A stretch of DNA of 64,000 nucleotides from Thermoanaerobaculia bacterium (lineage in GTDB: Bacteria > Acidobacteriota > Thermoanaerobaculia > Multivoradales > UBA5704): contig DASVAS010000028.1 of NCBI GenBank assembly GCA_036376245.1, positions 29,339-93,338 of the forward strand, written 5' to 3'. Positions within the stretch are counted from its first letter, which is position 1, and each line of letters opens with the position of its first letter. The notes beneath the pieces were generated by a model, which saw only the letters and a program-made list of their open reading frames with translations, made no database searches and was not told where the DNA came from. Shown here in pieces: positions 3,170 through 43,095 of the stretch. The position numbers and the translations under genes were made by a program.

Positions 3170-3199
3170 CCGAGCCCTCTTGCGTTGAGGTACCTTTTC

Positions 3200-3238
3200 G
3201 GGGCGGCCGTCCACGGACGGCCGCCCCGGTTCTTTTGT
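3200..3238 (+). terminator. Rho-independent terminator.
   Basis: A 13-bp GC stem (GGGGCGGCCGTCC / GGACGGCCGCCCC) with an ACG loop, followed by GGTTCTTTTGT, lies directly downstream of the 3169 stop. Confidence 0.6.
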
Positions 3239-4292: not shown

Positions 4293-4335
4293 GCGAGGCG
4301 AGCTTCCATGAGGGGGCTCGCCTCTTCCTTTTCAG
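4293..4335 (+). terminator. Candidate intrinsic terminator.
   Basis: Stem GAGGCGAGC / GCTCGCCTC around a 13-nt loop, followed by TTCCTTTTCAG, directly after the stop at 4269. Confidence 0.45.
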
Positions 4336-8740: not shown

Positions 8741-9252
8741 GGATCTACCTGACCGGCTTCATGGGGTCCGGCAAGACCACGGTGGGCCGCCTCCTCGCCG
8801 CGCGGCTCGGGGCGACGTTCCTGGACCTCGACGTGGAGATCGAGCGCCGCGCCGGTATGACGGTGCGTGAGATCTTCGAGCGGCAGGGGGAGCCGGCGTT
8901 CCGGCAGTTGGAGGCGGAGGCCCTGCGAGGGACTTTGGCGCTTCCCGACGTTGTGGTGGCGACGGGCGGCGGTACGATGGTGTTCGAAGGGAACTCCAGG
9001 CTGATCCGCTCGAACGGGCTTTCGGTCTGGCTCAACCCGCCGTTCGCGACCATCGCGGCGCGCATCGGCGGGGTGGGCAAGGCCGACCGGCCGCTGTTCA
9101 AGGACGAGGTCCAGGCCCTCGCGCTCTACCGCGAGCGGCTCCCGGCCTACCGCCGGGCGGACCTGACGGTGGACGTGGCCCCGCAGGAGGGGCCGGAGGA
9201 GATCGCGGCGAGGATCGCCCTCATGATCGGGGACCGACGGTGCGCTATCTGA
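8737..9252 (+). CDS. aroK: Shikimate kinase.
   Basis: ATG at 8737 overlaps the thiE stop (ATGA). The product begins [25 protein letters not shown] (Walker A) and contains the shikimate-kinase block DLDVEIERRAGMTVREIF. Confidence 0.85.
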   Translation: MRIYLTGFMGSGKTTVGRLLAARLGATFLDLDVEIERRAGMTVREIFERQGEPAFRQLEAEALRGTLALPDVVVATGGGTMVFEGNSRLIRSNGLSVWLNPPFATIAARIGGVGKADRPLFKDEVQALALYRERLPAYRRADLTVDVAPQEGPEEIAARIALMIGDRRCAI

Positions 9253-9983
9253 TTCTCTCCGACATGCACGCCAACTGGGACGCCTTCGAGACCGTCCTGC
9301 GGCGGGCCCGGCGCAAGCGCTACGACTCGGTGCTGGTGCTGGGAGACCTGGTGGGCTACGGCGGCGCGCCCAACCAGGTGGTGGACGCCGTGCGCCGTCT
9401 CGGCCCCCGCCTGTGGATCGTGCGCGGCAACCACGACAAGGTCGTGGCCGGCATCGACTCGGGGAGCAACTTCAACCACACCGCCCTGGCGGCGGCGCAG
9501 TGGACCACCGGCCGGCTCACCCCCGCCAACCTGCGCTACGTCCGGGAGCTGCCGCAGGGGCCGGTCGAGATCGAGAAGGGTGTCGCCATCTGCCACGGCT
9601 CCCCCCTGGACGAGGACACCTACGTCTTCTCCGACGTGGACGCCTGGGAGATCTTCTCCCGCTTCGACATGCCGGTGACCTTCTTCGGCCACACGCACAT
9701 CCCGTCGGTCTTCTGGCTGGAGGGGCGCGTGCTGGGGGTGCGGGCGCTGAAGGGGACGACGGGCCGGCTGGAGCTCGCCCCGGGCGGGCGCTACCTGCTC
9801 AACCCCGGCTCCATCGGCCAGCCCCGGGACCGCGACCGCAGGGCTTCCTACATGACCTACGACAGCGAGCGGCGGGTGGTGCGCTGGTACCGCGTGCCCT
9901 ACAACATCGCCGAGGCCCAGCGCCGCATCCGCCGGGCCGGCCTGCCCGGCAGCCTGGCGGACCGGCTGGCGGTAGGGGCTTAA
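9240..9983 (+). CDS. Metallophosphoesterase (calcineurin-like phosphoesterase family).
   Basis: LILSDMHANWDAFE, VLGDLVGYGG, GNHD and GHTH metal-binding motifs are present. It overlaps the aroK stop by 13 nt. Confidence 0.75.
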   Translation: MRYLILSDMHANWDAFETVLRRARRKRYDSVLVLGDLVGYGGAPNQVVDAVRRLGPRLWIVRGNHDKVVAGIDSGSNFNHTALAAAQWTTGRLTPANLRYVRELPQGPVEIEKGVAICHGSPLDEDTYVFSDVDAWEIFSRFDMPVTFFGHTHIPSVFWLEGRVLGVRALKGTTGRLELAPGGRYLLNPGSIGQPRDRDRRASYMTYDSERRVVRWYRVPYNIAEAQRRIRRAGLPGSLADRLAVGA

Positions 9984-9998
9984 GGGTTTACCGAAAAC

Positions 9999-10082
9999 AG
10001 GACCTAAAGGACATAAAGGACCTAAAGGACGGGGTGGTGGCGTCCTTTAGGCCCTTTAGGTCGTTTATGTCCTTTAGGTCCT
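9999..10082. repeat. Long imperfect palindrome built from tandem 9-mers (GGACCTAAA / GGACATAAA), which likely acts as a bidirectional terminator hairpin between convergent genes.
   Basis: Left arm AGGACCTAAAGGACATAAAGGACCTAAAGGACG, loop GGGTGGTGG, right arm CGTCCTTTAGGCCCTTTAGGTCGTTTATGTCCTTTAGGTCCT. It sits between the metallophosphoesterase stop (9983) and the ccmF stop (10074), and overlaps the last codons of ccmF. Confidence 0.6.
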
Positions 10083-12314
10083 TGCCGACCCTGCCGCCAC
10101 AGCTTCCCGGATCCGCACCTCCCGGAACCGCTGCACCGTCGACAGCAGTCCCCCGATGAAGATGATGTAGAGGCCGCCCCAGACGAGCTGGATGAGCGGC
10201 TTGCGGGTCACGTCCACCGAGAGCTTGGCCGGCAGCGCCATGCCCACGAGGTCCAACGTCACGGTGCGTTGCTCGGGATTGATGCCCGAGAGGACGATCT
10301 GGCCGCCGGTGGGGAGCTGCGCCGGCGGGGTCTCCACCGTGCCGTTCGCCGGGTTGATCCGGTAGAGCGTCATCACGTCGGCGGTCTGCCCGTCGCGGGT
10401 CACCGCCAGCCGCGCGCCCACCGTCACTGGCTGGCCCTCGGACATCGCCGCCATGGCGTTGCCCTCCACCTGGAGGTCGAAGCCCACGAACTTGATCTCC
10501 AGGTCCCCGAGCGTCCCGGACTCCCCCTGGGCGAGCTGGAGCTTCGGCTGGCCCGGATCGAAGTCGATGGGCGAGACGTAGAGGTCCTGGAACGGCGAGC
10601 TCTTGATGTCCGGGTTCGCCATCACCTGGCGGGTGCGGTCGTTGATGAACAGCTTCGGGTAGACCGTGACCGGCTTCTGGCCGTCGCGGGCGACCAGGAC
10701 CTCCATGCTCTCCTTCTCGTGGCCCTGCCGCGGGATGAAGCGCTGGAAGGTGAGCGTCATGCCCTCCACCTTCTTCGGCGTGCCCTGGACCAGCGTCACC
10801 TTGGTGCTGTGGTCGTAGGCCGAGGAGGCGATGAAGCCGAGCAGCATCACGCCGACTCCGATATGGGAGAGGTAGCCGCCCATGGCCTTGAGGCCGCCCA
10901 CCCGGTAGCGGGCGATCGTCTTCTGGACGTTGGCGGCGAGCGCCAGGGTGGCCAGGAAGACGAAGAGGATGTGGAAGACGTCGCGGACCTGCCAGACCGC
11001 CGCGGCCACGGTGACCACGAGGCTGAAGCCGAGCGGCCAGAGCATCCGGCGGAAGATTTCCCGCGGCGGCGTCCCCTTCCAGGCGAGGTAGGGAACCAGC
11101 GCCAGCAGCAGGCCGATCAGCAGGGCGATGGGCAGGTTGACCTTGTTGTAGAAGCTGGGGCCGACCTGGCTGGGGTCCGCCATGAAGCGGGTCAGCAGCG
11201 GCGCCGAGGTGCCGACGGTGATGATGACGGCGGAGATCGTCAGGGTGATCGTCGACAGCACCAGGAAGTTGCCGCGGGAGAAGAACGGGTCCTCGTTGGG
11301 GGCGGTGGGGATCTCCTTCCAGCGGGTGGCGAGCAGGTAGAGGCCGAAGAGGAGAAAACCGCCGAGGATGATGGTGAGCGGTCCCGCGATGCCGAGGTCC
11401 ACGAAGCTGTGGACGGAGAAATCGGCGAGCACGCCCGAGCGGGTGAGGAACGTGCCGTAGAGCACCGAGACGTAGGTCAGGATGGTGAACAGGTAGTTGG
11501 CCCGGCGGTAGCGCCCCTGGGTGCGCTCCAGGTAGAGGCCGTGGATCAGCACCGTGCCGAAGATCCAGGGGATCAGCGAGGCGTTCTCCACCGGGTCCCA
11601 GCCCCAGTAGCCGCCCCAGCCCAGGGTCTTGTAGGCCCAGTAGCCTCCCATCAGGATCGCCGTGCCGAGGACGAGGAAGCCGCCGAGCGCCCAGGGGAAG
11701 GCGCGGGCCGCCCAGCCGTCGTAGTCGCGGCGCAGCAGCGAGGCCATGGCGAAGGCGAAGGGGATGGCGGCCGAGGCGTAGCCGATGAACATGATCGGCG
11801 GGTGGATCACCATCCAGTCGTCCTGCAGCAGGGGGTTGAGCCCCGCGCCCTCGATGGGCGTCTGGCGCAGCATGACGAACGGGTTCTCCCGCACCAGGAT
11901 GAGCAGCAGGCTCATCAGGGTCAGCGTGTAGACCCCCATGACCAGGGGCTCGTTGCGGCCGGCGGTGCGGCGGACGAGCAGGCCGATCACGGCCCCCCAG
12001 AACAGCCAGATGAGGAAGCTCCCCTTCTGCCCGGCCCAGAAGGCGGCGAACTGGTAGTGCGCCGGCAGGTCCGTCCCCGAGTACTGGTACACGTACTCGA
12101 CGCGGAAGTCGCGCATGATCAGCAGCAGGCCCAGCACCACCGACGCGAGGACGATGGAGAGGGCGAAGAAGCCGTAGCAGCGGCGGGCGAACGGCAGCGA
12201 GCCGCCGTCGCCGGAATAGACCCGCGCGTAGCCGTAGAGGGCCGCGAAGGAGAAGAGGAGCGCGGACCAGATGGTGAGCGCCCCGGGGAGATAGAGCTGC
12301 GAGAGATAGTCCAC
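10074..12314 (-). CDS. ccmF: Cytochrome c-type biogenesis heme lyase CcmF.
   Basis: WWD domain (WGGYWGWDPVENASLIPW) and a multi-transmembrane architecture, immediately downstream of ccmE. Confidence 0.9.
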   Translation of the reverse strand: MDYLSQLYLPGALTIWSALLFSFAALYGYARVYSGDGGSLPFARRCYGFFALSIVLASVVLGLLLIMRDFRVEYVYQYSGTDLPAHYQFAAFWAGQKGSFLIWLFWGAVIGLLVRRTAGRNEPLVMGVYTLTLMSLLLILVRENPFVMLRQTPIEGAGLNPLLQDDWMVIHPPIMFIGYASAAIPFAFAMASLLRRDYDGWAARAFPWALGGFLVLGTAILMGGYWAYKTLGWGGYWGWDPVENASLIPWIFGTVLIHGLYLERTQGRYRRANYLFTILTYVSVLYGTFLTRSGVLADFSVHSFVDLGIAGPLTIILGGFLLFGLYLLATRWKEIPTAPNEDPFFSRGNFLVLSTITLTISAVIITVGTSAPLLTRFMADPSQVGPSFYNKVNLPIALLIGLLLALVPYLAWKGTPPREIFRRMLWPLGFSLVVTVAAAVWQVRDVFHILFVFLATLALAANVQKTIARYRVGGLKAMGGYLSHIGVGVMLLGFIASSAYDHSTKVTLVQGTPKKVEGMTLTFQRFIPRQGHEKESMEVLVARDGQKPVTVYPKLFINDRTRQVMANPDIKSSPFQDLYVSPIDFDPGQPKLQLAQGESGTLGDLEIKFVGFDLQVEGNAMAAMSEGQPVTVGARLAVTRDGQTADVMTLYRINPANGTVETPPAQLPTGGQIVLSGINPEQRTVTLDLVGMALPAKLSVDVTRKPLIQLVWGGLYIIFIGGLLSTVQRFREVRIREAVAAGSART

Positions 12315-12338
12315 GATCGCCTCCAGGGCCCGAAGGTC

Positions 12339-12734
12339 CTAGCTGTAGGTCTTGACCTCGGTCCCCTGATACTTGCTGGGGCACTTCACCAGCAGCTTCT
12401 CGGCATGGAACTCCTGCGCCTGGTCGTCGTAGCGGCCGATCGCCACGATGCTGACGGCGTCCTCGAAGTTGGCCGGCTTGAGGCCCTTGTAGCGGACCCG
12501 CAGGTTTTCGCCCGTCTTCGGGTCCTTGAGGGTGAAGAGGAGCGACTCCTGGGCGGACACATAGGAGGAGCTCCCCTTCTCCAGCCCGCCGGCCACCTGC
12601 ACGATGCGGTTGCCGTCGCGGGCCTTCTCGTAGGAGACGTAGGGAGTCATGGAGTCCTTGAACGCCGTGAACGAGAAGCCGGCGAAGGCCACCAGCAGCA
12701 GGCCGCCGAACATGTACAGTCGATTTTTATTCAT
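12339..12734 (-). CDS. ccmE: Cytochrome c maturation heme chaperone CcmE.
   Basis: A single N-terminal transmembrane helix followed by an OB-fold periplasmic domain (LRVRYKGLKPANFEDAVSIVAIG, EFHAEKLLVKCPSKYQ). Confidence 0.85.
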   Translation of the reverse strand: MNKNRLYMFGGLLLVAFAGFSFTAFKDSMTPYVSYEKARDGNRIVQVAGGLEKGSSSYVSAQESLLFTLKDPKTGENLRVRYKGLKPANFEDAVSIVAIGRYDDQAQEFHAEKLLVKCPSKYQGTEVKTYS

Positions 12735-16964: not shown

Positions 16965-17531
16965 ATGAAACACCGAATCACCGTCCCCGCCGTCCTTGTC
17001 CTTGGTGTCCTTGCCGTCCTTGTCCCCGCCGCCCAGGCCGATGACGAGAAGGACAAGAAGAAGGAGGAGAGCGTGCTGACCGGTACCGTCACCCGGGAGG
17101 CCATCGAGGCCGCCAACCCCGAGTGGGCGCAGGCGCAGGTGGAGGCGAAGCCGGACGCCGCGGCGGCGCAGGGCCTGGCGCAGGTCGAGCCGGGCGCGGA
17201 GGTCACCGTCTTCCTCGGCACCTGGTGCGGCGACAGCCGGCGCGAGGTGCCCCGCCTCTGGAGCGCCATCGACGTGGCCGGCGGCATGGTCCCCTTCAAG
17301 GTGACCTACATCGCCGTGGACCGCGACAAGAAGGATCCGGCGGGAGAGGCGGTGAAGAGCGACATCCGGTACGTGCCCACCCTGATCGTGGTCCGCGACG
17401 GCCGCGAGGTGGGCCGCATCGTCGAGACGTCGCCGCACGGCGTCGAAGCCGACCTGCTGGCCCTCCTCACGGGGAAGGCCCAGGGCGTCATCTCCACCCG
17501 GGAGGACCTGGGCGGCGGCTCCTCCCGCTAG
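16965..17531 (+). CDS. Secreted thioredoxin-fold protein with a single-cysteine CxxS active-site variant (WCGDS).
   Basis: Signal peptide (VLVLGVLAVLVPAAQA). Thioredoxin-like core VTVFLGTWCGDSRREVPRLW ... YVPTLIVVRDGREVGRI, in which the second Cys of the canonical WCxxC is replaced by Ser. Confidence 0.65.
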   Translation: MKHRITVPAVLVLGVLAVLVPAAQADDEKDKKKEESVLTGTVTREAIEAANPEWAQAQVEAKPDAAAAQGLAQVEPGAEVTVFLGTWCGDSRREVPRLWSAIDVAGGMVPFKVTYIAVDRDKKDPAGEAVKSDIRYVPTLIVVRDGREVGRIVETSPHGVEADLLALLTGKAQGVISTREDLGGGSSR

Positions 17532-19712: not shown

Positions 19713-22700
19713 ATGCGCTCCGCGGTTGGGAGAGTCGCGCTTCTCCTGTTCGTCTCCGGCTTCTGCGCCCTGGTCTACCAGACGGCGTGGCTCCGCCTGT
19801 TCCGTCTGATCTTCGGCGCCTCCACGGCGGCCTCCGCCGCGGTGCTGGCCATCTTCATGGCCGGCCTGGGGCTGGGCGGCCTGCTGCTGGGCAAGCGGGC
19901 CGACCGCCACCCCTCGCCGCTGGGCCTCTACGCCCTGCTGGAGGCGGGCATCGCCGTCAGCGCCGGCCTGTCGCCCTGGCTGGTCGAGCTGGTGGAATGG
20001 ATCTACATCTCGCTCGGCGGCAGCGCCGCGCTGGGACTGACCGGCAGCACCCTGGTGCGGCTGCTGCTCTCCGTCCTGGTGCTCGGGCTGCCGACCTTCC
20101 TGATGGGCGGCACGCTGCCGGCCGTGGCGCGGGCGGTGGAGCGCTCGACGGACGCCGGCCGGCGGACCGTGGGCCTGCTCTACGCCGTCAACACCCTCGG
20201 GGCCGTGCTGGGGGTGATGCTCACCTCCTTCTTCGCCCTCGAGACGCTGGGGATCCGCAAGTCGGTGTGGATCGCGGCGCTGCTCAACCTGATCGTGGTG
20301 CTGGCCGCCCGCAGCCTGGCGCGCGAAATGACAGCCCGCCCGGAGGCGCCGGCCGCTCCGGAGGCCGCCCCCGAGCCGGACGGGGAGTCGCGGATCGGCT
20401 GGCTGGTGCCGCTGGCGGCCGGCGTGGTGGGCTTCGCCTTCCTGCTCATGGAGCTGGTCTGGTACCGCATGCTGGCGCCGCTGCTGGGCGGTTCCTCCTA
20501 CACCTTCGGGCTGATCCTGGCGGTGGCTCTGCTGGGGATCGGCGCCGGCGGCCTGCTCTACGGCGCGGGCGAGGCCCGGCGGCGGCCCACCATGCTCTCG
20601 TTCGCTGCCACCTGCTCTCTCGAAGCCCTGTTCATGGCCCTCCCCTTCGCCCTGGGCGACCGGGTGGCGGTGCTGGCCGCCCTGCTGCGGCCGCTGGGCA
20701 CCGCGGGCTTCCCGGCCCTGGTGGGGGCCTGGACGGCGATCACGGCCCTGGTGGTGCTGCCGGCGGCGATCGTGGCCGGCTACCAGTTCCCGCTGCTGAT
20801 CGCCCTGCTGGGCGAGGGGCGCCGCCGGGTGGGCCGGGAGGTGGGGGTGACCTACGCGGCCAACACCCTGGGGGCCATCCTGGGCTCCATCGCCGGCGGC
20901 TTCGGGCTGATCCCGCTGCTGACCGCGCCGGGCGTCTGGCGGCTGGTGACGGCCCTGCTGCTCGCTCTGGCGGCGCTGACGATCCTGGCCGGGCTGCGCG
21001 CCGGCGCGCAGCGCCGGGCCGCCCTGACGCCGCTGGCGGCGGGCGTCCTCGGCCTCCTCTTCTGCCTCTCCACGGGTCCCACCGCCTTCTGGCGGCATTC
21101 CCCGATCGGCGCCGGCCGCATGCCGACCGCCCACTGGACCGGGCCGAACGAGATCCGCAGCCAGGTCGACCAGAAGAGCCTGCGCACCGTCTGGGAGGCG
21201 GACGGGGTGGAGAGCAGCGTCGCCCTCGACCTCTCGGTCGAGTACGCCTTCATGATCAACGGCAAGTCCGACGGCAGCACGCTGGGGGACTCCCCCACCC
21301 AGGTGATGAGCGGCCTGGTGGCGGCGGCGCTGCACCCGAATCCGAAGCGGGTGCTGGTCATCGGCCTGGGCACGGGGAGCACGGCCGGCTGGCTCGCCCG
21401 CATCCCGTCCGTGGAGCGGGTGGACGTGGTGGAACTGGAGCCGGTCATCGAGCACGTGTCGCGCGTCCTCTCCAAGATCAACCTGGACGTGCTCTCCAAT
21501 CCCAAGGTCCGCCTCTACGAGGGGGACGGCCGGGAGTTCCTGCTCACCACGCGCGAGCGCTACGACATCATCTTCTCCGAGCCTTCGAACCCCTACCGGG
21601 CGGGGGTGGCGAGCCTGTTCAGCCAGGACTTCTACCGCGCCGCCATCGGGCGGCTGCAATCGGGCGGCATCTTCCTCCAGTGGCTGCAGGGCTACGAGGT
21701 GGACGCCCAGATGCTGCGCACGGCCTACGCCACGCTGACCTCGGTCTTCCCGACGGTCGAGAGCTGGCACGTCCATTACGCGGACACCCTGCTGATCGCC
21801 ACTCCCGAGCCCCTGGTCCATGACTTCGACCGCGTGCGGCGGCGCATGGCCCAGGAGCCGTACCGCACCGCCCTGGCCCGCACCTGGGGAGTCGACGGCG
21901 CCGAGGGTCTCTACGCCGGCTTCCTGGCCGCCCCCTCCTTCATCCGCGACGTGGCCGAGGCCGCGGGGGACAGCGTCAACACCGACGACCGCCCGATCCT
22001 GGAGTTCGGCTTCGCCAGGAACCTGGGCCGGCCGGGGCTGATCGACCTGTACGACGTGGCCAACCTGGTGAAGGCGCGCGGGGAGGACCGTCCGGCGGGC
22101 CGCGGCGCGCCCCTGGACTGGGGCCGGGTGGGAGAGATGCAGGTGGCGATCTCCGCCTACGAGGAGGAGATCTACCCCGATCCCGACCCGCGCGGCGACC
22201 GCGCGGCGCGGCTGCGCATCGCCGCCCGCCACGCCTGGGTGCGCGAGGACTTCCAGCGCGCCTGCGGCTACTGGTTCCGGCAGCCGCAGCCGCCCACCGC
22301 CCACGCCGACGTGCTGCTGGTGGCCGAGTGCCTCGCCGCGGCGGCGGACGCCCGCCTGCCGCAGGCCGCCGCCTGGCTCGCCCGCGAGCAACCCATCGAG
22401 GCCCAGATGGTCTTGGCCCGCTGGCACATGGCGTCCGGCCGGCCGCGGGAAGCGGCCGAGAGCCTGCTGACGGCTCTCCGCGGCTATCAGAATGACCCCT
22501 GGGTCTACCGCCCCCTGGTTCGGCGGACCCTCCCCATGGTCATCGACCTGGCGCGGTGGGACCGCGCCGTGGGGCTGCGGCTCTTCGAGACCCTGTCGCG
22601 GCCGTTCTCCACCGACATGTTCCACCACCAGCGGCTCCTCAACCGCATCTGGCTCGCCCGCGAGCTGGGCTCGCCGCGGCTGTGCGCCGAAGCCCTGGCC

Positions 22701-22856
22701 GCGTTCGAGCCCCACGTGCCGTGGGAGGAGCAGGTCCTGACCTTCCGCTACGAGTGCTACCAGGCGGCGAAGAGCCCGCTGTTGGACCGGGCGCGGGAGG
22801 ACCTGGAGGCCTACCGCGCCGCCGCGCCGCCCGCCATGACGATGGCGAGCCGATAG
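19713..22856 (+). CDS. Fused MFS-type membrane domain and spermidine-synthase-like domain protein, paralog 1 of 3 (1047 aa), with a divergent C-terminal helical domain.
   Basis: The N-terminal roughly 450 aa are polytopic. The middle is an aminopropyltransferase-like fold (VLVIGLGTGSTAGWLARIPSVERVDVVELEP..., EGDGREFL, YDIIFSEPSNPYRAGVASLFSQDFY). The C-terminal roughly 300 aa are helical. The protein is near-identical at the N-terminus to the two downstream copies. Confidence 0.8.
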   Translation: MRSAVGRVALLLFVSGFCALVYQTAWLRLFRLIFGASTAASAAVLAIFMAGLGLGGLLLGKRADRHPSPLGLYALLEAGIAVSAGLSPWLVELVEWIYISLGGSAALGLTGSTLVRLLLSVLVLGLPTFLMGGTLPAVARAVERSTDAGRRTVGLLYAVNTLGAVLGVMLTSFFALETLGIRKSVWIAALLNLIVVLAARSLAREMTARPEAPAAPEAAPEPDGESRIGWLVPLAAGVVGFAFLLMELVWYRMLAPLLGGSSYTFGLILAVALLGIGAGGLLYGAGEARRRPTMLSFAATCSLEALFMALPFALGDRVAVLAALLRPLGTAGFPALVGAWTAITALVVLPAAIVAGYQFPLLIALLGEGRRRVGREVGVTYAANTLGAILGSIAGGFGLIPLLTAPGVWRLVTALLLALAALTILAGLRAGAQRRAALTPLAAGVLGLLFCLSTGPTAFWRHSPIGAGRMPTAHWTGPNEIRSQVDQKSLRTVWEADGVESSVALDLSVEYAFMINGKSDGSTLGDSPTQVMSGLVAAALHPNPKRVLVIGLGTGSTAGWLARIPSVERVDVVELEPVIEHVSRVLSKINLDVLSNPKVRLYEGDGREFLLTTRERYDIIFSEPSNPYRAGVASLFSQDFYRAAIGRLQSGGIFLQWLQGYEVDAQMLRTAYATLTSVFPTVESWHVHYADTLLIATPEPLVHDFDRVRRRMAQEPYRTALARTWGVDGAEGLYAGFLAAPSFIRDVAEAAGDSVNTDDRPILEFGFARNLGRPGLIDLYDVANLVKARGEDRPAGRGAPLDWGRVGEMQVAISAYEEEIYPDPDPRGDRAARLRIAARHAWVREDFQRACGYWFRQPQPPTAHADVLLVAECLAAAADARLPQAAAWLAREQPIEAQMVLARWHMASGRPREAAESLLTALRGYQNDPWVYRPLVRRTLPMVIDLARWDRAVGLRLFETLSRPFSTDMFHHQRLLNRIWLARELGSPRLCAEALAAFEPHVPWEEQVLTFRYECYQAAKSPLLDRAREDLEAYRAAAPPAMTMASR

Positions 22857-22871: not shown

Positions 22872-25800
22872 ATGCGTTCGGCCGTCGCGAGAGTCGCCCT
22901 CCTGCTGTTCGTCTCCGGTTTCTGCGCCCTGGTCTACCAGACGGCGTGGCTGCGGCTTTTCCGGCTGATCTTCGGCGCGTCCACCGCGGCCTCGGCCGCG
23001 GTGCTGGCCATCTTCATGGCCGGCCTGGGATTCGGCGGCCTGCTGCTGGGCAAGCGGGCCGACCGCCACCGCTCGCCGCTTGGCCTGTACGCCACGCTGG
23101 AGGCGGGTATCGCCATCTCGGCCGGCCTGTCGCCCTGGCTGGTGAAGCTGGTGGAATGGGTCTACATCTCGCTCGGCGGCAGCGCCGCGCTGGGGCTGGC
23201 CGGGAGCACCCTGGTGCGGCTGCTGCTCTCCGTCCTGGTGCTGGGAGTGCCGACCTTCCTGATGGGCGGCACGCTGCCGGCGGTGGCGCGGGCGGTCGAG
23301 CGCTCGACGGACGCCGGCCGGCGGACCGTGGGCCTGCTCTACGCCGTCAACACCCTGGGCGCGGTGCTGGGCGTGCTGCTGACCACCTTCTTCGCCATCG
23401 AGGAGCTGGGGGTCCGCAAGACGGTCTGGATCTCGGCGCTGCTCAACCTGCTGGTGGTGCTGGCGGCGCGGAGCCTGGCCCGGCGGCTGGGAGAGGGGCG
23501 GACGGAAGAAGCCGCGGTGGAGGAGGAGGCTCCCGGAGCGGAGTCCCGGATCGGCTGGCTGGCGCCGTTCGCGGCCGGGCTGGTGGGCTTCGCCTTCCTG
23601 CTGATGGAGCTGGTCTGGTACCGCATGCTGGCGCCGCTGCTGGGCGGCTCGGTCTACACCTTCGGCCTGATCCTGGCCGTGGCCCTGCTGGGGATCGGCC
23701 TCGGCGGCCTGCTCTACGGCGCCGGCGAGGCCCGGCGGCGGCCCGCCATGCTCTCCTTCGCCGCCACCTGCGCGCTGGAAGCCCTGTTCATGGCCCTTCC
23801 CTTCGCCCTGGGCGACCGGGTGGCGGTGATGGCAGCTCTGCTGCGCCCCCTCGGGGTCTACGGCTTCGCCTCCCTGGTGGGAGCCTGGTCGGCGATCACC
23901 GCCCTGGTGGTGCTGCCGGCGGCGATCGTCGCCGGCTACCAGTTCCCGCTGCTGATCGCCCTGCTGGGCGAGGGGCGCCGCCGGGTGGGCCGCGAGGTGG
24001 GGATCACCTACGCGGCCAACACCCTGGGGGCCATCCTGGGCTCCATCGCCGGCGGCTTCGGCTTGATCCCGCTGCTGACCGCGCCGGGCGTCTGGCGGCT
24101 GGTCGCGGCGCTGCTCCTGGGGCTCGCGGCGGTGACGACCGTGGTGGGCCTGCGGGCGGGGGCCCCGCGCCGGGCCGCCCTGGTCCCTGTGATGGCGGGC
24201 GTCCTGGGGGTCGTCTTCTGCCTCGCCACCGGCCCCACGGCCTTCTGGCGGCACTCGCCCATCGGCGCCGGCCGGGTGGAGACCGCGAAGTGGACGGGGC
24301 CGAACGACGTGCGGCGGAACATCGAGGACCTGCGGCGCCGCGTCGTCTGGGAGGCCGACGGCGTGGAGAGCAGCGTCGCCCTCGACCTCACCATGGAGTA
24401 CGCCTTCATCGTCAACGGCAAGGCCGACGGCAGCACCCTGGGGGATTCGCCGACCCAGGTGATGAGCGGCCTGGTGGGCGCGGCGCTGCATCCGAATCCG
24501 AAGCGGGTGCTGGTCATCGGCCTGGGGACGGGGAGCACGGCGGGCTGGCTCGCCCGCATCCCCTCCATCGAGCGGGTGGACGTGGTGGAGCTGGAGCCCG
24601 CCATCGAGCACGTGGCCAAGGTCCTCTCCAAGGTCAATCTGGACGTGCTCTCCAATCCCAAGGTCCACCGCTACGACGGCGACGGCCGGGAGTTCCTGCT
24701 GACCACGCGCGAGACCTACGACGTCATCTTCTCCGAGCCGTCCAACCCCTACCGGGCGGGGATCGCGAGCCTGTTCAGCCAGGACTTCTACCGGGCGGCC
24801 GTGGGCCGGCTGCGGCCGGGGGGCATCTTCCTCCAGTGGCTGCAGGGCTACGAGATGGACGCCCACATGCTGCGCACGGCCTACGCCACGCTGACCTCCG
24901 TCTTCCCGGCGGTCGAGAGCTGGCAGATCCACTACTCCGACCTGCTGCTGATCGCCACCGTCGAGCCCCTGGCGCACGACTTCGACCGCGTGCGGGCGCG
25001 GATGGCCGGCGAGCCCTACCGCACCGCCCTGGCCCGCACCTGGGGGGTGGCGGACGCCGAGGGCTTCTACGCCGGCTACCTGGCCGCGCCGTCCTTCGCG
25101 CGGGCGGTGAGCGAGGCCGGGGGGGACGACGTCGTCAACACCGACGACCGCCCCGTGCTCGAGTTCGGCTTCGCCAAGAGCCTGGGCCGGCTGGGTCTGT
25201 TCGACGTCGCCAACCTCCTGGACCTGGTGAAGGCGCGCGGGGAGCACCGCCCGGCGGGCCGGGGGGCGCCCCTGGACTGGGCCAGGGTGGGAGAGATGCA
25301 GGTCGCCATCTCCGCCTATGCCGAGGAGGTCTTCCCCGATCCGGACCCGCGGGGGGACCGCGGAGCGCGGCTGCGCATCGCCGCCCGCCACGCCGCGGCC
25401 CGCGACCAGCTCCGGGAGGCCTGCGGCCACTGGCTCGCCCAGCCCGAGCCCCCCCGTGTCCACGGCGACCTGCTGCTGGTGGCCGAGTGTCTGGCCGACG
25501 CCGCCCACCCCCGCCTGCCGCAGGCCGCGGCCTGGCTGGCCCGCGAGCAACCCATCGAGGCCGAGATGGTCCTGGCCCGCTGGCACGCCGCCGCCGGCCG
25601 TCCGAAGGAGGCGACCGATCACCTGGTGGCGGCGTTCCAGGCCTACCGGTCGGACCCCTGGGTCTACCGTCCCCTGGTCCGGCGGACCCTGCCGTTGGCC
25701 ATCGATCTGGCGCGGGGGGACCGCGCCCTGGGCGCGCGGCTCTACGACGGGCTGTCGCGGCCGTTTTCCACCGACATGCTGGAGCAGCTCCGCCGGCTGG

Positions 25801-26018
25801 TCCGCCTCTGGGTGGCCCGCGAGCTGGGCGAGCCCCGGCTGTGCGCCGAGGCCCTCGCCTCCCTGGAGCCCCACCCGCCGTGGGATGAGCAGGTCCTGGA
25901 GTTCCGGTACGAGTGCTACCAGGCGGCGGGGAGCCCGCTCGCGGACCGGGCGCGGCAGGCCCTGGAGGCGTTCCGGGCCGCCGCGCCGCCCGTCCTGAAA
26001 GCCGATCTGGCGAAGTAG
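22872..26018 (+). CDS. Fused MFS/spermidine-synthase-like protein, paralog 2 of 3 (1048 aa).
   Basis: It starts 15 nt after paralog 1, preceded by a GGAGG ribosome-binding site. It has the same architecture and roughly 85-90% nucleotide identity to copy 1 over the 5' half. Confidence 0.8.
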   Translation: MRSAVARVALLLFVSGFCALVYQTAWLRLFRLIFGASTAASAAVLAIFMAGLGFGGLLLGKRADRHRSPLGLYATLEAGIAISAGLSPWLVKLVEWVYISLGGSAALGLAGSTLVRLLLSVLVLGVPTFLMGGTLPAVARAVERSTDAGRRTVGLLYAVNTLGAVLGVLLTTFFAIEELGVRKTVWISALLNLLVVLAARSLARRLGEGRTEEAAVEEEAPGAESRIGWLAPFAAGLVGFAFLLMELVWYRMLAPLLGGSVYTFGLILAVALLGIGLGGLLYGAGEARRRPAMLSFAATCALEALFMALPFALGDRVAVMAALLRPLGVYGFASLVGAWSAITALVVLPAAIVAGYQFPLLIALLGEGRRRVGREVGITYAANTLGAILGSIAGGFGLIPLLTAPGVWRLVAALLLGLAAVTTVVGLRAGAPRRAALVPVMAGVLGVVFCLATGPTAFWRHSPIGAGRVETAKWTGPNDVRRNIEDLRRRVVWEADGVESSVALDLTMEYAFIVNGKADGSTLGDSPTQVMSGLVGAALHPNPKRVLVIGLGTGSTAGWLARIPSIERVDVVELEPAIEHVAKVLSKVNLDVLSNPKVHRYDGDGREFLLTTRETYDVIFSEPSNPYRAGIASLFSQDFYRAAVGRLRPGGIFLQWLQGYEMDAHMLRTAYATLTSVFPAVESWQIHYSDLLLIATVEPLAHDFDRVRARMAGEPYRTALARTWGVADAEGFYAGYLAAPSFARAVSEAGGDDVVNTDDRPVLEFGFAKSLGRLGLFDVANLLDLVKARGEHRPAGRGAPLDWARVGEMQVAISAYAEEVFPDPDPRGDRGARLRIAARHAAARDQLREACGHWLAQPEPPRVHGDLLLVAECLADAAHPRLPQAAAWLAREQPIEAEMVLARWHAAAGRPKEATDHLVAAFQAYRSDPWVYRPLVRRTLPLAIDLARGDRALGARLYDGLSRPFSTDMLEQLRRLVRLWVARELGEPRLCAEALASLEPHPPWDEQVLEFRYECYQAAGSPLADRARQALEAFRAAAPPVLKADLAK

Positions 26019-26031
26019 GAGTCATCGAAAA

Positions 26032-29000
26032 ATGCGTTCAGCGGTCGCAAGGGTCGCCCTTCTTCTCTTCGTCTCCGGCTTCTGCGCCCTGGTCTACCAG
26101 ACGGCGTGGCTCCGGCTGTTCCGCCTGGTCTTCGGCGCTTCAACCGCGGCCTCGGCCGCGGTGCTGGCCATCTTCATGGCCGGCCTGGGGTTCGGCGGCC
26201 TGCTGCTGGGCAAGCGGGCCGACCGCCACCGCTCGCCGCTGGGCCTGTACGCCGCGCTGGAGGCGGGCATCGCCATCAGCGCCGGCCTCTCGCCCTGGCT
26301 GGTGAAGCTGGTGGAATGGGTCTACATCTCGCTCGGCGGCAGCGCCGCGTTGGGGCTGGCCGGGAGCACCGTGGTGCGGCTGCTGCTCTCCACCCTGGTG
26401 CTGGGAGTCCCGACCTTCCTGATGGGGGGCACGCTGCCGGCCGTGGCGCGGGCCGTGGAGCGCGGCACCGACGCCGGCCGGCGGACCGTGGGCCTGCTCT
26501 ACGCCGTCAACACCCTGGGCGCGGTGCTGGGCGTCGGGCTGACCTCCTTCTTCGCCCTGGAGATGCTGGGCATCCGCAAGACGGTCTGGATCGCGGCGCT
26601 GCTCAACCTGCTGGTGGTGCTGGCGGCGCGCAGCCTGGCCCGGAGCCTCGCGGCGGAGAGGTCCGCCGAGGAAGCCGCGGAGGAGGCTGTGGAAGAGGGG
26701 GAGCGGTCGCGAATCGGCTGGCTGGTGCCGCTGGCGGCGGGGATCGTGGGCTTCGCCTTCCTGCTGATGGAGCTGGTCTGGTACCGCATGCTGGCGCCGC
26801 TCCTGGGCGGCTCCTCCTACACCTTCGGCCTGATCCTGGCCGTGGCCCTGCTGGGCATCGGCGTCGGCGGCCTGCTCTACGGCGCGGGGGAGGCGCGGCG
26901 GCGGCCGACGATGCTCTCCTTCGCCGCCACCTGCTCCCTGGAAGCCCTGTTCATGATCGTCCCCTTCGCCCTGGGGGACCGGCTGGCGGTGGCGGCCGCC
27001 CTCCTGCGGCCGATCGGCGGCGCCGGCTTCCCCGCCCTGGTGGGGGTCTGGACGCTGATCACGGCGCTGGTGGTGCTGCCGGCGGCGATCGTGGCCGGCT
27101 ACCAGTTCCCGCTCCTCATCGGCCTGCTGGGCCAGGGGCGCCGCCAGGTGGGCCGGGAGGTGGGGGTGACCTACGCCGCCAACACCCTGGGGGCCATCCT
27201 GGGCTCGATCGCCGGCGGCTTCGGCCTGCTGCCGCTGCTGACCGCGCCCGGGGTCTGGCGCCTGGTGGCGATCCTGCTCCTGGGGCTCGCGGCCGTGGCC
27301 GTGCTGGCCGGGTTGCGGGCCGGGGCCCCGCGCCGGGCGGTCCTGGTGCCCGCGGCGGCGGGCGTCCTGGGGCTCCTCCTCTGCTTCGCCACCGGGCCCT
27401 CGGCCTTCTGGCGGCATTCCCCCATCGGCGCCGGCCGGGTGGAGACCGCCAAGTGGACCGGGCCGAACGACATCCATGACCAGGTCTCGCAGATGCGCCA
27501 GCGCGTGACCTGGGAGGCGGAAGGGGTGGAAAGCAGCGTCGCCCTCGACCTGACGATGGAGTACTCGCTGATCGTCAACGGCAAGTCCGACGGCACCGCC
27601 ACCGCCGACGCGCCGACGCAGGTCCTCAGCGGTCTGATCGGCAGCATGGTCCACCCGAATCCCCGCCGCATCCTGGTCATCGGCCTGGGGACGGGGAGCA
27701 CGGCGGGCTGGCTCGCCCAGGTGCCGTCCGTCGAGCGGGTGGACGTGGTGGAGCTGGAGCCGGCCATCGCCCACGTGGGCCGCGTCCTCGCCAAGGTCAA
27801 CCTGGACGTAATGTCCAACCCCAAGGTCCACTTCTACGCCGGCGACGGCCGCGAGCTCCTCCTTGCCAAGGGGGATTCCTACGACCTGATCTTCTCCGAG
27901 CCCTCGAACCCCTACCGGGCCGGCGTCGCCAGCCTCTACAGCCAGGACTTCTACCGCGCCGCCCTGCGCCGCCTGCGGCCGGGCGGCCTCTTCCTCCAGT
28001 GGCTCCAGGGCTATGAGACCGACTTCCAGGTGGTGCGCACCGTCTACGCCACCCTGGGGTCGGTCTTCCCGGCGGTGGAGAGCTGGCAGACCCACCGGGT
28101 GGACCTGATGCTGATGGCGAGCCGCGAGCCGGTGGCGCACGACGTCTCCCTCGTGCGGAAACGGGCGGCCATGGAGCCCTACCGCACGGCCCTCTCCCGC
28201 ATCTGGGGGGTGGCGGGCGCCGAGGGCTTCTACTCCGCCTACGTGGCCCGGCCCTCCTTCGCGCGGGCCGTGGCCGACGCCGAGGGCTCCGCCGTCAACA
28301 CCGACGACCGCCCGATCCTGGAGTTCGGCTACGCCAAGAACCTCGGCCGCTTCAACATGTTCCAGCCCGCCGACCTCCACGCCCTGGCGAAGTCGCGGCG
28401 GGAGAACCGGCCGGCGACCCGCGGCGAGCCGCTCGACTGGGCGCGCGTCGAGGAGGCGCGGGTGGCGCGGGCGGCCTGGTGGGGAGAGTCCCTGGAGGCT
28501 GCCGACCCACAGGGCGACCCGGACGCGCGGCATCGGATCTCCGCGCGGCAGGCGTTCGTGGACGACCGCCTGCCGCAGGCCTGCGCCGCCTGGTTCCGGC
28601 AGCCGGAGCCGCCCCGGTTCCACGTCGACAAGATGCTGGTCAGCCTGTGCCTCGCCGCAGCCGGCCATCCCCGCGCTCCGGAGTACGCCGCCCTGCTGGC
28701 CGGGGAACAGCCCATCGAGGCCGACCTGGTGCTCGCCCAGTGGCACGCCGCCGCGGGCCGGCCGGCGGCAGCCGGCGAGCACCTCCTGAAGGCGTTCGAG
28801 GGATTCCGCCGCGACCCCTGGATCTTCCGCCCTCTCGTCCAGCGGGTGCTGCCCGCCACGGTCACCCTCGCGCGGCGCGATCCGGCCCTCGGCGAGCGGC
28901 TCCTCCGTTCCCTCGACCAGCCGTTCGCCGTCCGCATGTTCGACCGCCAGCGGCTGATCACGCGCATCTGGCTGACCCAGGGGCTGAGCGCGCCGGAGCT

Positions 29001-29193
29001 CTGCGCCCGGGCCATCGCCCCGTTCGAGCCGCACTCCCCCTGGGAGGAGAGCTTCCTGCGCTACCGCCACGAGTGCTACCGCAAGCTGCGGCACCCGCTG
29101 GAGGCCAGGGCGCGGCGCGACCTGGAAGACTTCCTGGAGCACACTCCCCCCAGGCTCGCGGAGGGCCTGGAGCCGGCGCGGCCCTCTTCTTGA
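26032..29193 (+). CDS. Fused MFS/spermidine-synthase-like protein, paralog 3 of 3 (1053 aa), which has the most divergent C-terminal domain.
   Basis: It starts 13 nt after paralog 2. The N-terminal and aminopropyltransferase-like core are conserved (IFSEPSNPYRAGVASLYSQDFY). The C-terminal 300 aa have diverged. Confidence 0.8.
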   Translation: MRSAVARVALLLFVSGFCALVYQTAWLRLFRLVFGASTAASAAVLAIFMAGLGFGGLLLGKRADRHRSPLGLYAALEAGIAISAGLSPWLVKLVEWVYISLGGSAALGLAGSTVVRLLLSTLVLGVPTFLMGGTLPAVARAVERGTDAGRRTVGLLYAVNTLGAVLGVGLTSFFALEMLGIRKTVWIAALLNLLVVLAARSLARSLAAERSAEEAAEEAVEEGERSRIGWLVPLAAGIVGFAFLLMELVWYRMLAPLLGGSSYTFGLILAVALLGIGVGGLLYGAGEARRRPTMLSFAATCSLEALFMIVPFALGDRLAVAAALLRPIGGAGFPALVGVWTLITALVVLPAAIVAGYQFPLLIGLLGQGRRQVGREVGVTYAANTLGAILGSIAGGFGLLPLLTAPGVWRLVAILLLGLAAVAVLAGLRAGAPRRAVLVPAAAGVLGLLLCFATGPSAFWRHSPIGAGRVETAKWTGPNDIHDQVSQMRQRVTWEAEGVESSVALDLTMEYSLIVNGKSDGTATADAPTQVLSGLIGSMVHPNPRRILVIGLGTGSTAGWLAQVPSVERVDVVELEPAIAHVGRVLAKVNLDVMSNPKVHFYAGDGRELLLAKGDSYDLIFSEPSNPYRAGVASLYSQDFYRAALRRLRPGGLFLQWLQGYETDFQVVRTVYATLGSVFPAVESWQTHRVDLMLMASREPVAHDVSLVRKRAAMEPYRTALSRIWGVAGAEGFYSAYVARPSFARAVADAEGSAVNTDDRPILEFGYAKNLGRFNMFQPADLHALAKSRRENRPATRGEPLDWARVEEARVARAAWWGESLEAADPQGDPDARHRISARQAFVDDRLPQACAAWFRQPEPPRFHVDKMLVSLCLAAAGHPRAPEYAALLAGEQPIEADLVLAQWHAAAGRPAAAGEHLLKAFEGFRRDPWIFRPLVQRVLPATVTLARRDPALGERLLRSLDQPFAVRMFDRQRLITRIWLTQGLSAPELCARAIAPFEPHSPWEESFLRYRHECYRKLRHPLEARARRDLEDFLEHTPPRLAEGLEPARPSS

Positions 29194-32002: not shown

Positions 32003-33709
<1,707 letters not shown>

Positions 33710-33797
33710 GAAGGACACCAGGGACACCAGGGACCTCAGGGACAAAAGAGCTCCGTCCTTGAGGTCCTTGGTGTCTTTGGTGTCCTTGAGGTCCTTC
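33710..33797. repeat. Second copy of the palindromic tandem 9-mer element (GGACACCAG / GGACCTCAG units), a terminator-like hairpin after proS.
   Basis: Left arm GAAGGACACCAGGGACACCAGGGACCTCAGGGAC, loop AAAAGAGCTCC, right arm GTCCTTGAGGTCCTTGGTGTCTTTGGTGTCCTTGAGGTCCTTC. The arm mismatches are G:T, so they form G-U pairs only in the plus-strand transcript. It starts 1 nt after the proS stop. Confidence 0.6.
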
Positions 33798-33852
33798 TCT
33801 CTTAGACGACTGTGCTATTGTAGTCGTACACCACTTTCAGTGGACGACTACA

Positions 33853-34278
33853 ATGCCAAGCCTCCTGCGTATCGATCCCCGGGACGCCCGTCCGATCTGG
33901 CGGCAGATCGAGGAGGGGATGCAGCACCTGATCGCCCGCGGCGCCCTGCCGGCGGGCGCGCTCGTTCCCTCGGTGCGGGACCTCGCCCGCGAGCTGCAGA
34001 TCAATCCCGCCACGGTCTCCAAGGCCTACCAGCGCCTCACCGACGCCGGCGTCCTCTCCGTCCGCCGGGGGGAGGGGACGTTCGTGGCGGCGGCGCCGCC
34101 GCCCGCGTCCGACACCCGCCGCGCGGGCCGGCTGCGGGAAGAGGCGGTGCGCTACGCCAGCCTCGCCAAGACCCTGGGCGCCAGCCAGGAAGAAGCCGTC
34201 GCGACGCTCGAAGAAGCCTGGGACAGCCTGGAAGAAGAAGAGGATGAGTCATGGACCCGATCGTCCTTGAGGGCCTGA
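33853..34278 (+). CDS. GntR-family transcriptional regulator, short YtrA-like subtype.
   Basis: Winged helix-turn-helix (LPSVRDLARELQINPATVSKAYQRLTDAGVLSVRRGEGTFVA). It is a short 141-aa protein with an acidic tail, immediately upstream of an ABC ATPase. Confidence 0.8.
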   Translation: MPSLLRIDPRDARPIWRQIEEGMQHLIARGALPAGALVPSVRDLARELQINPATVSKAYQRLTDAGVLSVRRGEGTFVAAAPPPASDTRRAGRLREEAVRYASLAKTLGASQEEAVATLEEAWDSLEEEEDESWTRSSLRA

Positions 34279-43014: not shown

Positions 43015-43036
43015 GCCGGTGAGGGACCTCGGGTGT

Positions 43037-43080
43037 CAGGATTATGCACCAGAAACATTATGTAGCTGGTGCATAATCCT
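43037..43080. promoter_or_regulatory. Perfect 16-bp AT-rich palindrome (CAGGATTATGCACCAG-N12-CTGGTGCATAATCCTG), which is an operator candidate 23 nt upstream of the AAA ATPase start or a terminator for the aldo/keto reductase.
   Basis: Exact inverted repeat in a locally AT-rich 80-nt intergenic segment. An internal ATTATG direct repeat is also present. Confidence 0.5.
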
Positions 43081-43095
43081 GACAAGCCCGCCGGC

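Follow-up and report, generated by a model that had tools for sequence, protein, structure and literature searches.

Palindromes of tandem GGAC nonamers at bacterial gene ends: a probable REP-like repeat family

Introduction

What are the two long palindromes of tandem 9-nt units that adjoin stop codons in this contig: RNA structures evolved as such for the genes that they follow, or copies of a repeat that arrived by insertion? The window, by which we mean the whole 64-kb stretch of DNA analysed, carries one of them (element 1) where a metallophosphoesterase gene and ccmF converge, and the other (element 2) at the 3' end of proS. A sequence-only reading had proposed both answers at once, namely a structured repeat family of the REP/MITE type located at gene ends, and terminator or stability hairpins shaped for the plus-strand RNA. 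The first proposal is now borne out by many further copies at gene ends; the second is not supported in the form in which it was put. The explanation that we favour, and consider likely, is that both window palindromes belong to a dispersed family of non-autonomous repeats, similar in behaviour to REP elements or MITEs. Literature searches with phrases and sequence strings turned up no account of this family, which is apparently undescribed.

Anatomy of the two copies

Both copies follow one plan of three and a half GGACNNNNN units, an 11-nt loop and four and a half inverted units, and both adjoin stop codons (Table 1; boundaries were read from the sequence and with repeat finders). This agrees with the earlier description of two palindromes of the same design with a short loop and an extra unit in the right arm; the unit consensus given there, GGACNTNAR, is corrected to GGACMYMAR. 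The two copies are only ~65% identical to one another. Element 1 starts ACAGGAC and belongs to a CTAAA/ATAAA subfamily. Its five right-arm cores are GTCC, GCCC, GTCG, GTCC and GTCC, of which GCCC and GTCG are degenerate. Element 2 starts GAAGGAC, belongs to a CTCAR/ACCAR subfamily and has the right-arm cores GTCC, GTCC, GTCT, GTCC and GTCC; its right arm agrees with that of the family consensus described later in the text. The placement of the copies after the metallophosphoesterase gene and proS is upheld by Pfam matches for the genes. Element 2 begins 1 nt past the TAG stop of proS, and the TAA stop of CcmF (10074-10076, minus strand) lies within the last right-arm unit of element 1, so the overlap previously noticed there is real.

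The arm mismatches had been described as G:T. This holds for element 2, which has four, every one at the identical unit position and all able to pair only in the proS-sense RNA. Element 1 has no G:T mismatch; its arms differ by one G/G and one A/C. As the four in element 2 share one position in the unit, they probably stem from a single event that was later homogenized. The predicted RNA folds are very stable, at -54 and -67 kcal/mol (z-scores between -7.0 and -8.6 whichever strand is folded). The preference of the sequence-only reading for the plus strand fails for element 1, the RNA of which folds equally well from either strand.

The pattern GGACN5GGACN5GGAC has five matches in the window against 0.03 expected. 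At the Rfam gathering threshold there was no match at the window elements or in 18 loci from other phyla, and the sub-threshold resemblances were to microRNA hairpins only. One three-unit match to the GGAC pattern, at 16998-17019, is not a palindrome. It is a period-9 GTCCTTGNN run that encodes the hydrophobic core of a signal peptide, VLVLGVLAVLV, in a thioredoxin-like open reading frame (ORF; 16965-17531), and the relative L245 has an identical array in the homologous ORF. Between element 2 and the GntR-family gene lies a separate 15-nt inverted repeat, ATTGTAGTCGTACAC / GTGGACGACTACAAT (33817-33854), which ends at the start codon of that gene and is closely preceded by a related GACGACTGTGCTATTGTAGTC; it probably serves this gene as its operator.

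Table 1. Coordinates of the elements, their flanking genes, the empty sites and the four-helix-bundle suffix genes (window positions unless a locus is named)
Feature	Position	Strand	Details
Metallophosphoesterase gene	9240-9983	+	Pfam
Element 1, entire insert	9984-10089		106 nt; occupies the gap between the convergent stop codons
Element 1, palindrome	9999-10083		~85 nt
Element 1, left arm	9999-10030		3.5 units: A-GGACCTAAA-GGACATAAA-GGACCTAAA-GGAC
Element 1, left-arm GGAC cores	10000, 10009, 10018, 10027
Element 1, loop	10031-10041		11 nt, GGGGTGGTGGC, non-palindromic
Element 1, right arm	10042-10083		4.5 inverted units: GTCCTTTAG-GCCCTTTAG-GTCGTTTAT-GTCCTTTAG-GTCC-T
CcmF gene	10074-12314	-	Pfam
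ProS gene	32003-33709	+	Pfam; TAG stop 33707-33709
Element 2, palindrome	33710-33797		88 nt
Element 2, left arm	33710-33743		3.5 units: GAA-GGACACCAG-GGACACCAG-GGACCTCAG-GGAC
Element 2, left-arm GGAC cores	33713, 33722, 33731, 33740
Element 2, loop	33744-33754		11 nt, AAAAGAGCTCC
Element 2, right arm	33755-33797		4.5 units: GTCCTTGAG-GTCCTTGGT-GTCTTTGGT-GTCCTTGAG-GTCC-TTC
GntR-family gene	start 33853		Pfam; downstream of element 2
Empty sites in relatives	L245:11485-11515, L244:3615-3642		ccmF/metallophosphoesterase overlap of 4 nt (CTAA)
Four-helix-bundle suffix genes	L193:3019-3642, L226:1743-2396, L217:6135-6800, L196:3-359, L499:166-843
Further four-helix-bundle suffix genes	L190:6431-7129, L253:3853-4524, L335:4913-5568, L212:3-194

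Insertion of element 1

In two relatives, L245 (CcmF 87% identical) and L244 (90%), ccmF and the phosphoesterase gene still converge, and their stop codons overlap. Their empty site reads ...GGGGGCCTAAGCCCCC... (also written ...GTGGCGGGGGCCTAAGCCCCCACCGCC...), and the gene ends form a small GC hairpin, GGGGGC-CTAA-GCCCCC, in the loop of which element 1 sits. Alignment to both empty sites leaves a clean block of 106 nt (~9984-10089) that is present in the window only. This block has the ends CCGAAAAC-AGGAC ... GTCC-TTGCCG, similar to the (CCGG)AAAGGAC ... GTCCTTT(CCGG) termini of the family. The insert supplies the last four codons of CcmF and its TAA stop, and the tail of the protein is changed from SVAGA* or AAAGG* in the relatives to AVAAGSART* in the window; the tail of the phosphoesterase is unaltered. 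Element 1 is thus shown to be inserted DNA and not a terminator that evolved locally.

The evidence for insertion is a single filled/empty comparison, which we count against the insertion reading, and in that comparison no target-site duplication was found beyond a 4-nt CCGA, possibly due to chance. Flanks of the metagenome copies, read by eye, gave no recurrent direct repeat. Close relatives yielded no copy of the palindrome in ~150 kb of sequence. ProS identity to relatives reaches 98%. What follows proS is different in every relative. Element 2 has no clean empty site because each relative has a different gene 3' of proS, and we infer that it too arrived by insertion. Insertion into the loop of a pre-existing hairpin, as for element 1, is no general rule: the paired bases between flanks number 5.4 against 4.3 in the control.

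Distribution and structure of the family

The pattern used on a genome collection comprised four GGAC units followed by GTCC-N5-GNCC at a distance of 7-14 nt, chosen so as to avoid the collagen phase, and it found at least 118 loci. Together with the window these loci contain 99 sites in which GGAC and GTCC arrays lie at most 30 nt apart, and nearly all are clear palindromes of the same plan. A second pattern, narrow and fitted to the two window copies, found at least 120 loci in metagenomes, which gave 74 palindromes, with dozens of copies in each of the metagenomes Ga0268265 and Ga0068862. Further copies, as expected of a repeat family, are therefore plentiful; the source genome was covered within the 64-kb window. 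Both patterns imposed GGAC, and other cores may exist; in contigs from sediment, GGAC arrays have arrays of different nonamers as neighbours.

The family is abundant in the source lineage, Thermoanaerobaculia, which accounts for ~45 of the listed genome loci, and one metagenome-assembled genome (SMAG_U2052) has at least nine copies. Other Acidobacteriota are also among the listed loci. Carriers in the PVC group are Verrucomicrobiota (Akkermansia), Lentisphaerae (Oligosphaera), Kiritimatiellae, Planctomycetota and Chlamydiota, and outside it Hydrogenedentota, Sumerlaeota, Desulfobacterota, Nitrospirota, Fibrobacterota, Chlorobaculum, Ignavibacteriota and Kapaibacteria. Three carriers are cultured: Desulfosarcina widdelii (complete chromosome), Oligosphaera ethanolica and Chlorobaculum thiosulfatiphilum. 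Matches of the Streptomyces type look like GC-rich coding repeats.

Copies are ~70-105 nt long, typically ~73 nt. The left arm typically has three and a half 9-nt units, each comprising an invariant GGAC, two to three variable bases and two lineage-specific bases; the commonest form has four cores in each arm. The loop of 8-13 nt is neither conserved nor palindromic. The palindrome does not run through its centre, and its loops are real and unconserved, which speaks against a simple snap-back origin. The metagenome consensus is (CCGG)AAA-GGACCTCAA-GGACACCAA-GGACCTCAA-GGAC on the left, followed by the loop, and GTCC-TTGAGGTCC-TTGGTGTCC-TTGAGGTCC-TTT(CCGG) on the right. Units alternate with an 18-nt super-period. 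At the termini AAA|GGAC is conserved to 95-99% and CCGG to 35-48%. A second unit type ends GGGGAACGATA|GGAC...GTCC|TATCGTTCCCC, with the termini GGAACGATAGGAC...GTCCTATCGTTCC, and lineage types can be told apart by the bases 5' of the core: AAGGAC, ATAGGAC and RTGGAC (R being A or G). Polarity in the metagenome loci, which were chosen for forward arrays, is forward in 74 copies and reversed (GTCC arm first) in none.

Within an element GGAC is fixed, and positions 4-5 of the pentamer are ~90% constant against only ~55% for positions 1-2. Median identity between arms is 82%, and the variable triplets mirror each other between arms at 0.52, against 0.51 in a control with shuffled unit order. The core and the period are kept and pairing at the variable positions is not; therefore, it is the GGAC period that is conserved rather than perfect pairing. 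The absence of mirroring, taken with the ~65% identity of the window copies, also means that simple copy-and-paste from a single master does not explain everything. The fixed 9-nt period of GGAC points to a sequence-specific constraint, for which insertion and spread of a REP-like repeat would not by themselves account. Arrays reach 26 units. Between L253 and L335, which are apparently homologous loci, the length of one arm varies by about two units.

GGAC nonamer arrays also occur without an inverted partner (L250, L257, L259, L261, L263, L301, L309, L311, L324, L334 and others). In contigs of the L250 type, from the Ga0315xxx metagenomes, they adjoin long arrays of CCTCCAGCC/TCTCAAGCC and CAGCACTCAGTCCT, and these contigs also carry a conserved hairpin, GTAGGATGGGCCTTGGCCCAT; such arrays are a different, composite tandem-repeat element.

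Position relative to genes

By gene calls that are approximate, from a crude ORF caller filtering on third-position GC, the genome set comprises 41 co-directional, 25 convergent and five divergent sites, with 14 more intragenic. The median distance between the upstream stop codon and the first GGAC is ~10 nt. In the metagenome set many copies are only 0-2 nt away, since their terminal AAA is shared in part with the stop (TAA, or TGA followed by A), and in the ATAGGAC type the element's own TAG is the stop. Copies in frame within ORFs exist as well, two of them in a 1659-amino-acid ORF of L220. The neighbours are assorted, unrelated housekeeping genes. Among the 66 flanking genes of at most 330 amino acids (of 144 flanking genes) there was no transposase, no RAYT-like gene and no enriched Pfam family.

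The course of events that we envisage is as follows. Copies arrive by insertion, as shown by element 1, which entered exactly at the overlap of the ccmF and phosphoesterase stops. They accumulate 0-15 nt from stop codons, often providing the stop, and are sometimes tolerated in frame in genes. Their arms gain and lose whole units, as other loci show. Once in place, a copy would be co-transcribed as a long 3'-UTR hairpin; slower exonuclease decay or insulation of convergent transcription may follow as side effects. Such elements are also a likely, if putative, cause of contig breaks and mis-called gene ends in metagenome-assembled genomes.

Terminators, coding remnants or inserted repeats?

The placement of the elements makes an effect on transcript 3' ends plausible, and one may ask whether host selection produced them, as bidirectional terminators or 3'-end stabilizers evolved for that role. 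Like intrinsic terminators they are stable hairpins that follow directly on stops and often lie between convergent genes. In the genome set the sense RNA is the more stable in 28 elements against 13 (binomial p = 0.03, Wilcoxon p = 0.09), a weak preference seen also in the metagenome set (14 against 8; Wilcoxon p = 0.15), and the G:T mismatches of element 2, pairing in the proS-sense RNA only, tend the same way. However, a terminator consensus scan called neither window copy, both having 11-nt loops and no T-tract, although it did call the T-tract sites at 3198 and 4295 in the same window. Intrinsic terminators have loops of 3-8 nt, and the stems of the GGAC elements, at 30-33 bp, are low in GC for a genome of ~70% GC. 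Transition mismatches throughout the family are evenly divided, 51 favouring the sense strand and 51 the antisense. Some copies lie in frame within genes, element 1 is a recent insertion absent from two relatives, and host selection for a hairpin would leave unexplained a 9-nt GGAC period conserved without conserved pairing at the variable positions. We therefore regard hairpins selected by the host as unlikely, and the claim that the window copies are terminator or stability hairpins shaped for the plus-strand RNA is, as worded, not supported in view of the 106-nt insertion, the lack of a terminator call, the in-frame copies and the even division of mismatches. With no terminator call, no strand bias in the mismatches and unmirrored arms, effects of the hairpins in the 3'-UTR are treated as a likely consequence of the elements rather than as their demonstrated purpose.

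A more sceptical view would put the palindromes down to chance, to a relic of collagen-like (Gly-X-Y) coding sequence or to an artefact of assembly. It is true that GGACCNNNN reads as Gly-Pro-X, that collagen-like genes dominate the matches to loose patterns and that the source is a metagenome-assembled genome. In viral contigs, where loose GGAC/GTCC patterns were also tried, the matches were almost all collagen-like Gly-Pro-X genes and were set aside. Against this view, the GTCC arm is in phase 6 mod 9 and not in the collagen phase of 1 mod 9. Only one long ORF (9988-12384, minus strand) runs across element 1, and Pfam gives no match for it; element 2 is situated between the stop of proS and the start of the GntR-family gene. 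Hundreds of independent assemblies, cultured isolates included, carry such palindromes, and the expectation per window is the 0.03 given earlier. This view is effectively refuted, and we would give it almost no weight. A dispersed repeat family spread by insertion remains the preferred explanation, the partner protein considered in a later section being compatible with it.

The two terminator-like sites in the window, at 3198-3229 and 4295-4324 on the plus strand, each combine a strong GC stem with a T-tract and lie downstream of ORFs that end at ~3169 and ~4269. They suggest that the organism has canonical intrinsic terminators.

Comparison with known repeats

The REP and BIME elements, tagged with GTAG/CGTC, are mobilized by RAYT transposases (Y1 HUH). 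Like the GGAC elements, they are high-copy imperfect palindromes located outside genes, at gene 3' ends, where they often donate the stop codon, and only occasionally within ORFs (PMC3733652). It is the termini of GTAG-tagged REPs that often donate a TAG stop, and some of these REPs are found inside ORFs (PMC3733652). The lack of a target-site duplication is a further likeness. The GGAC elements nevertheless exceed REPs two- to fourfold in length (the window copies measure 84 and 88 nt, compared with 20-40 nt for a REP). They lack the GTAG/CGTC tag, their termini being AAAGGAC...GTCCTTT, and their arms are made of tandem 9-nt units with a higher-order alternation of 18 nt. No RAYT gene was seen near them among the 66 small flanking genes scanned.

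Bacterial MITEs such as Correia/NEMIS, Nezha and RUP are short, non-autonomous inserts with inverted ends and many copies. Terminal inverted repeats and conserved ends are shared with the GGAC elements, but in the latter the entire element is an inverted repeat, the internal tandem units have no MITE counterpart, there is no target-site duplication at the one site examined and no parent insertion sequence is known. Rickettsia palindromic elements are palindromic repeats that can sit in frame in protein-coding genes and be translated; they differ in sequence and lineage, and most GGAC copies are intergenic. The cyanobacterial STRR are dispersed intergenic arrays of very short tandem units, but these are heptamers, do not form two inverted arms and belong to another phylum.

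In bacteria, REPs and MITEs influence how genes end, how stable transcripts are and how plastic the genome is; they have been characterized mainly in Proteobacteria. The GGAC family has another building principle, tandem 9-nt units in two inverted arms. It is abundant in poorly studied phyla of soil and sediment, and it rewrites C-termini and stop codons.

A candidate partner protein

That core and period are fixed across phyla, with drift in the remaining sequence, implies a sequence-specific partner. The only recurrent partner gene found belongs to the four-helix-bundle suffix family. Such genes join TIGR02436, as the N-terminal domain, to a suffix domain, TIGR04258, and match Pfam PF05635, the family of 23S rRNA intervening sequence proteins (S23p); TIGR02436 and TIGR04258 are also related to the accessory protein Avd of diversity-generating retroelements (DGRs). 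In loci from five phyla these genes hold a GGAC/GTCC nonamer palindrome at the junction between the two domains, or are flanked by arrays. Each of the eight family genes present in ~2 Mb of retrieved bacterial loci has an array within it or in contact with it, and the palindrome was seen directly in the DNA of five loci (L193, L226, L217, L196 and L499). The gene of L499 lies inside a type I restriction-modification operon and combines a palindrome within the gene with a GGAC array 5' of it. At L253, the arrays on the flanks of the gene have the local AAGGAC unit type.

The protein sequences carry a trace of the same motif. Across the 120 best homologues of one member, the linker follows the scheme (G-[QHRLP]-x)n...(S-[TMI]-x)n-YPEIAAN, at least partly in nearly all. 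Serine recurs at period 3 in 109 of the 120 (control region, 1 of 120) and glycine in 87 (control region, 13). The residues allowed after glycine (GGA-Cnn) and serine (TCC-A[CT]n) are restricted; it is therefore the DNA motif RTGGAC that is conserved and not the peptide.

These observations suggest, by analogy with REP-RAYT systems, which the arrangement resembles, that the four-helix-bundle proteins are the candidate sequence-specific partner. The arrays may, on this argument, be putative DNA- or RNA-binding platforms for an oligomeric, GGAC-specific protein, the best candidate for which is the TIGR02436/TIGR04258 family, and the dispersed copies may be ORF-less relatives of the gene-associated arrays, as REPs are to RAYT genes. 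An invariant GGAC and 9-nt spacing across phyla, with drift at the other positions and in arm pairing, is what a binding platform would predict. The contact of all eight genes with an array, the period-3 serine of the linker, the five palindromes seen directly and the matching unit type at L253 point the same way. Yet most dispersed copies have no such gene nearby, and there is none in the 64-kb window. The association was spotted post hoc in loci that had been selected for arrays, and the linker could derive from one ancient in-frame insertion. On balance a binding platform is a possibility that we entertain with some doubt. Equally tentative is the corollary that the GGAC-nonamer hairpins are the putative cognate element of the TIGR02436/TIGR04258 proteins, the dispersed palindromes being their ORF-less derivatives or sites. 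If correct, there would be a REP-RAYT-like partnership over eight or more phyla, and a function for the four-helix-bundle family.

The link with PF05635 invites comparison with the intervening sequences of 23S rRNA, long hairpin-forming inverted repeats with an S23p/four-helix-bundle ORF that are located in helix 25 or 45 and excised by RNase III. Long inverted repeats physically associated with PF05635 genes are common to both. The GGAC elements, however, are outside rRNA genes, have arms of GGAC nonamers and in most copies contain no ORF. Rfam found no rRNA in the window, where both copies follow protein-coding genes.

Other features of the window

Two further structures were observed in the window. 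At 43034-43084, in a genome of ~70% GC, there is an AT-rich, near-perfect palindrome of 25 + 25 nt, TGTCAGGATTATGCACCAGAAACAT / ATGTAGCTGGTGCATAATCCTGACA, located between two minus-strand genes and having no relation to the nonamer family. Between 19713 and 29193 lie three tandem paralogous ORFs of ~1050 amino acids each (19713-22856, 22872-26018 and 26032-29193). In the equivalent position the relatives L247 and L249 carry just one gene, for a protein of 1051-1060 amino acids with a spermine-synthase-like Pfam match.
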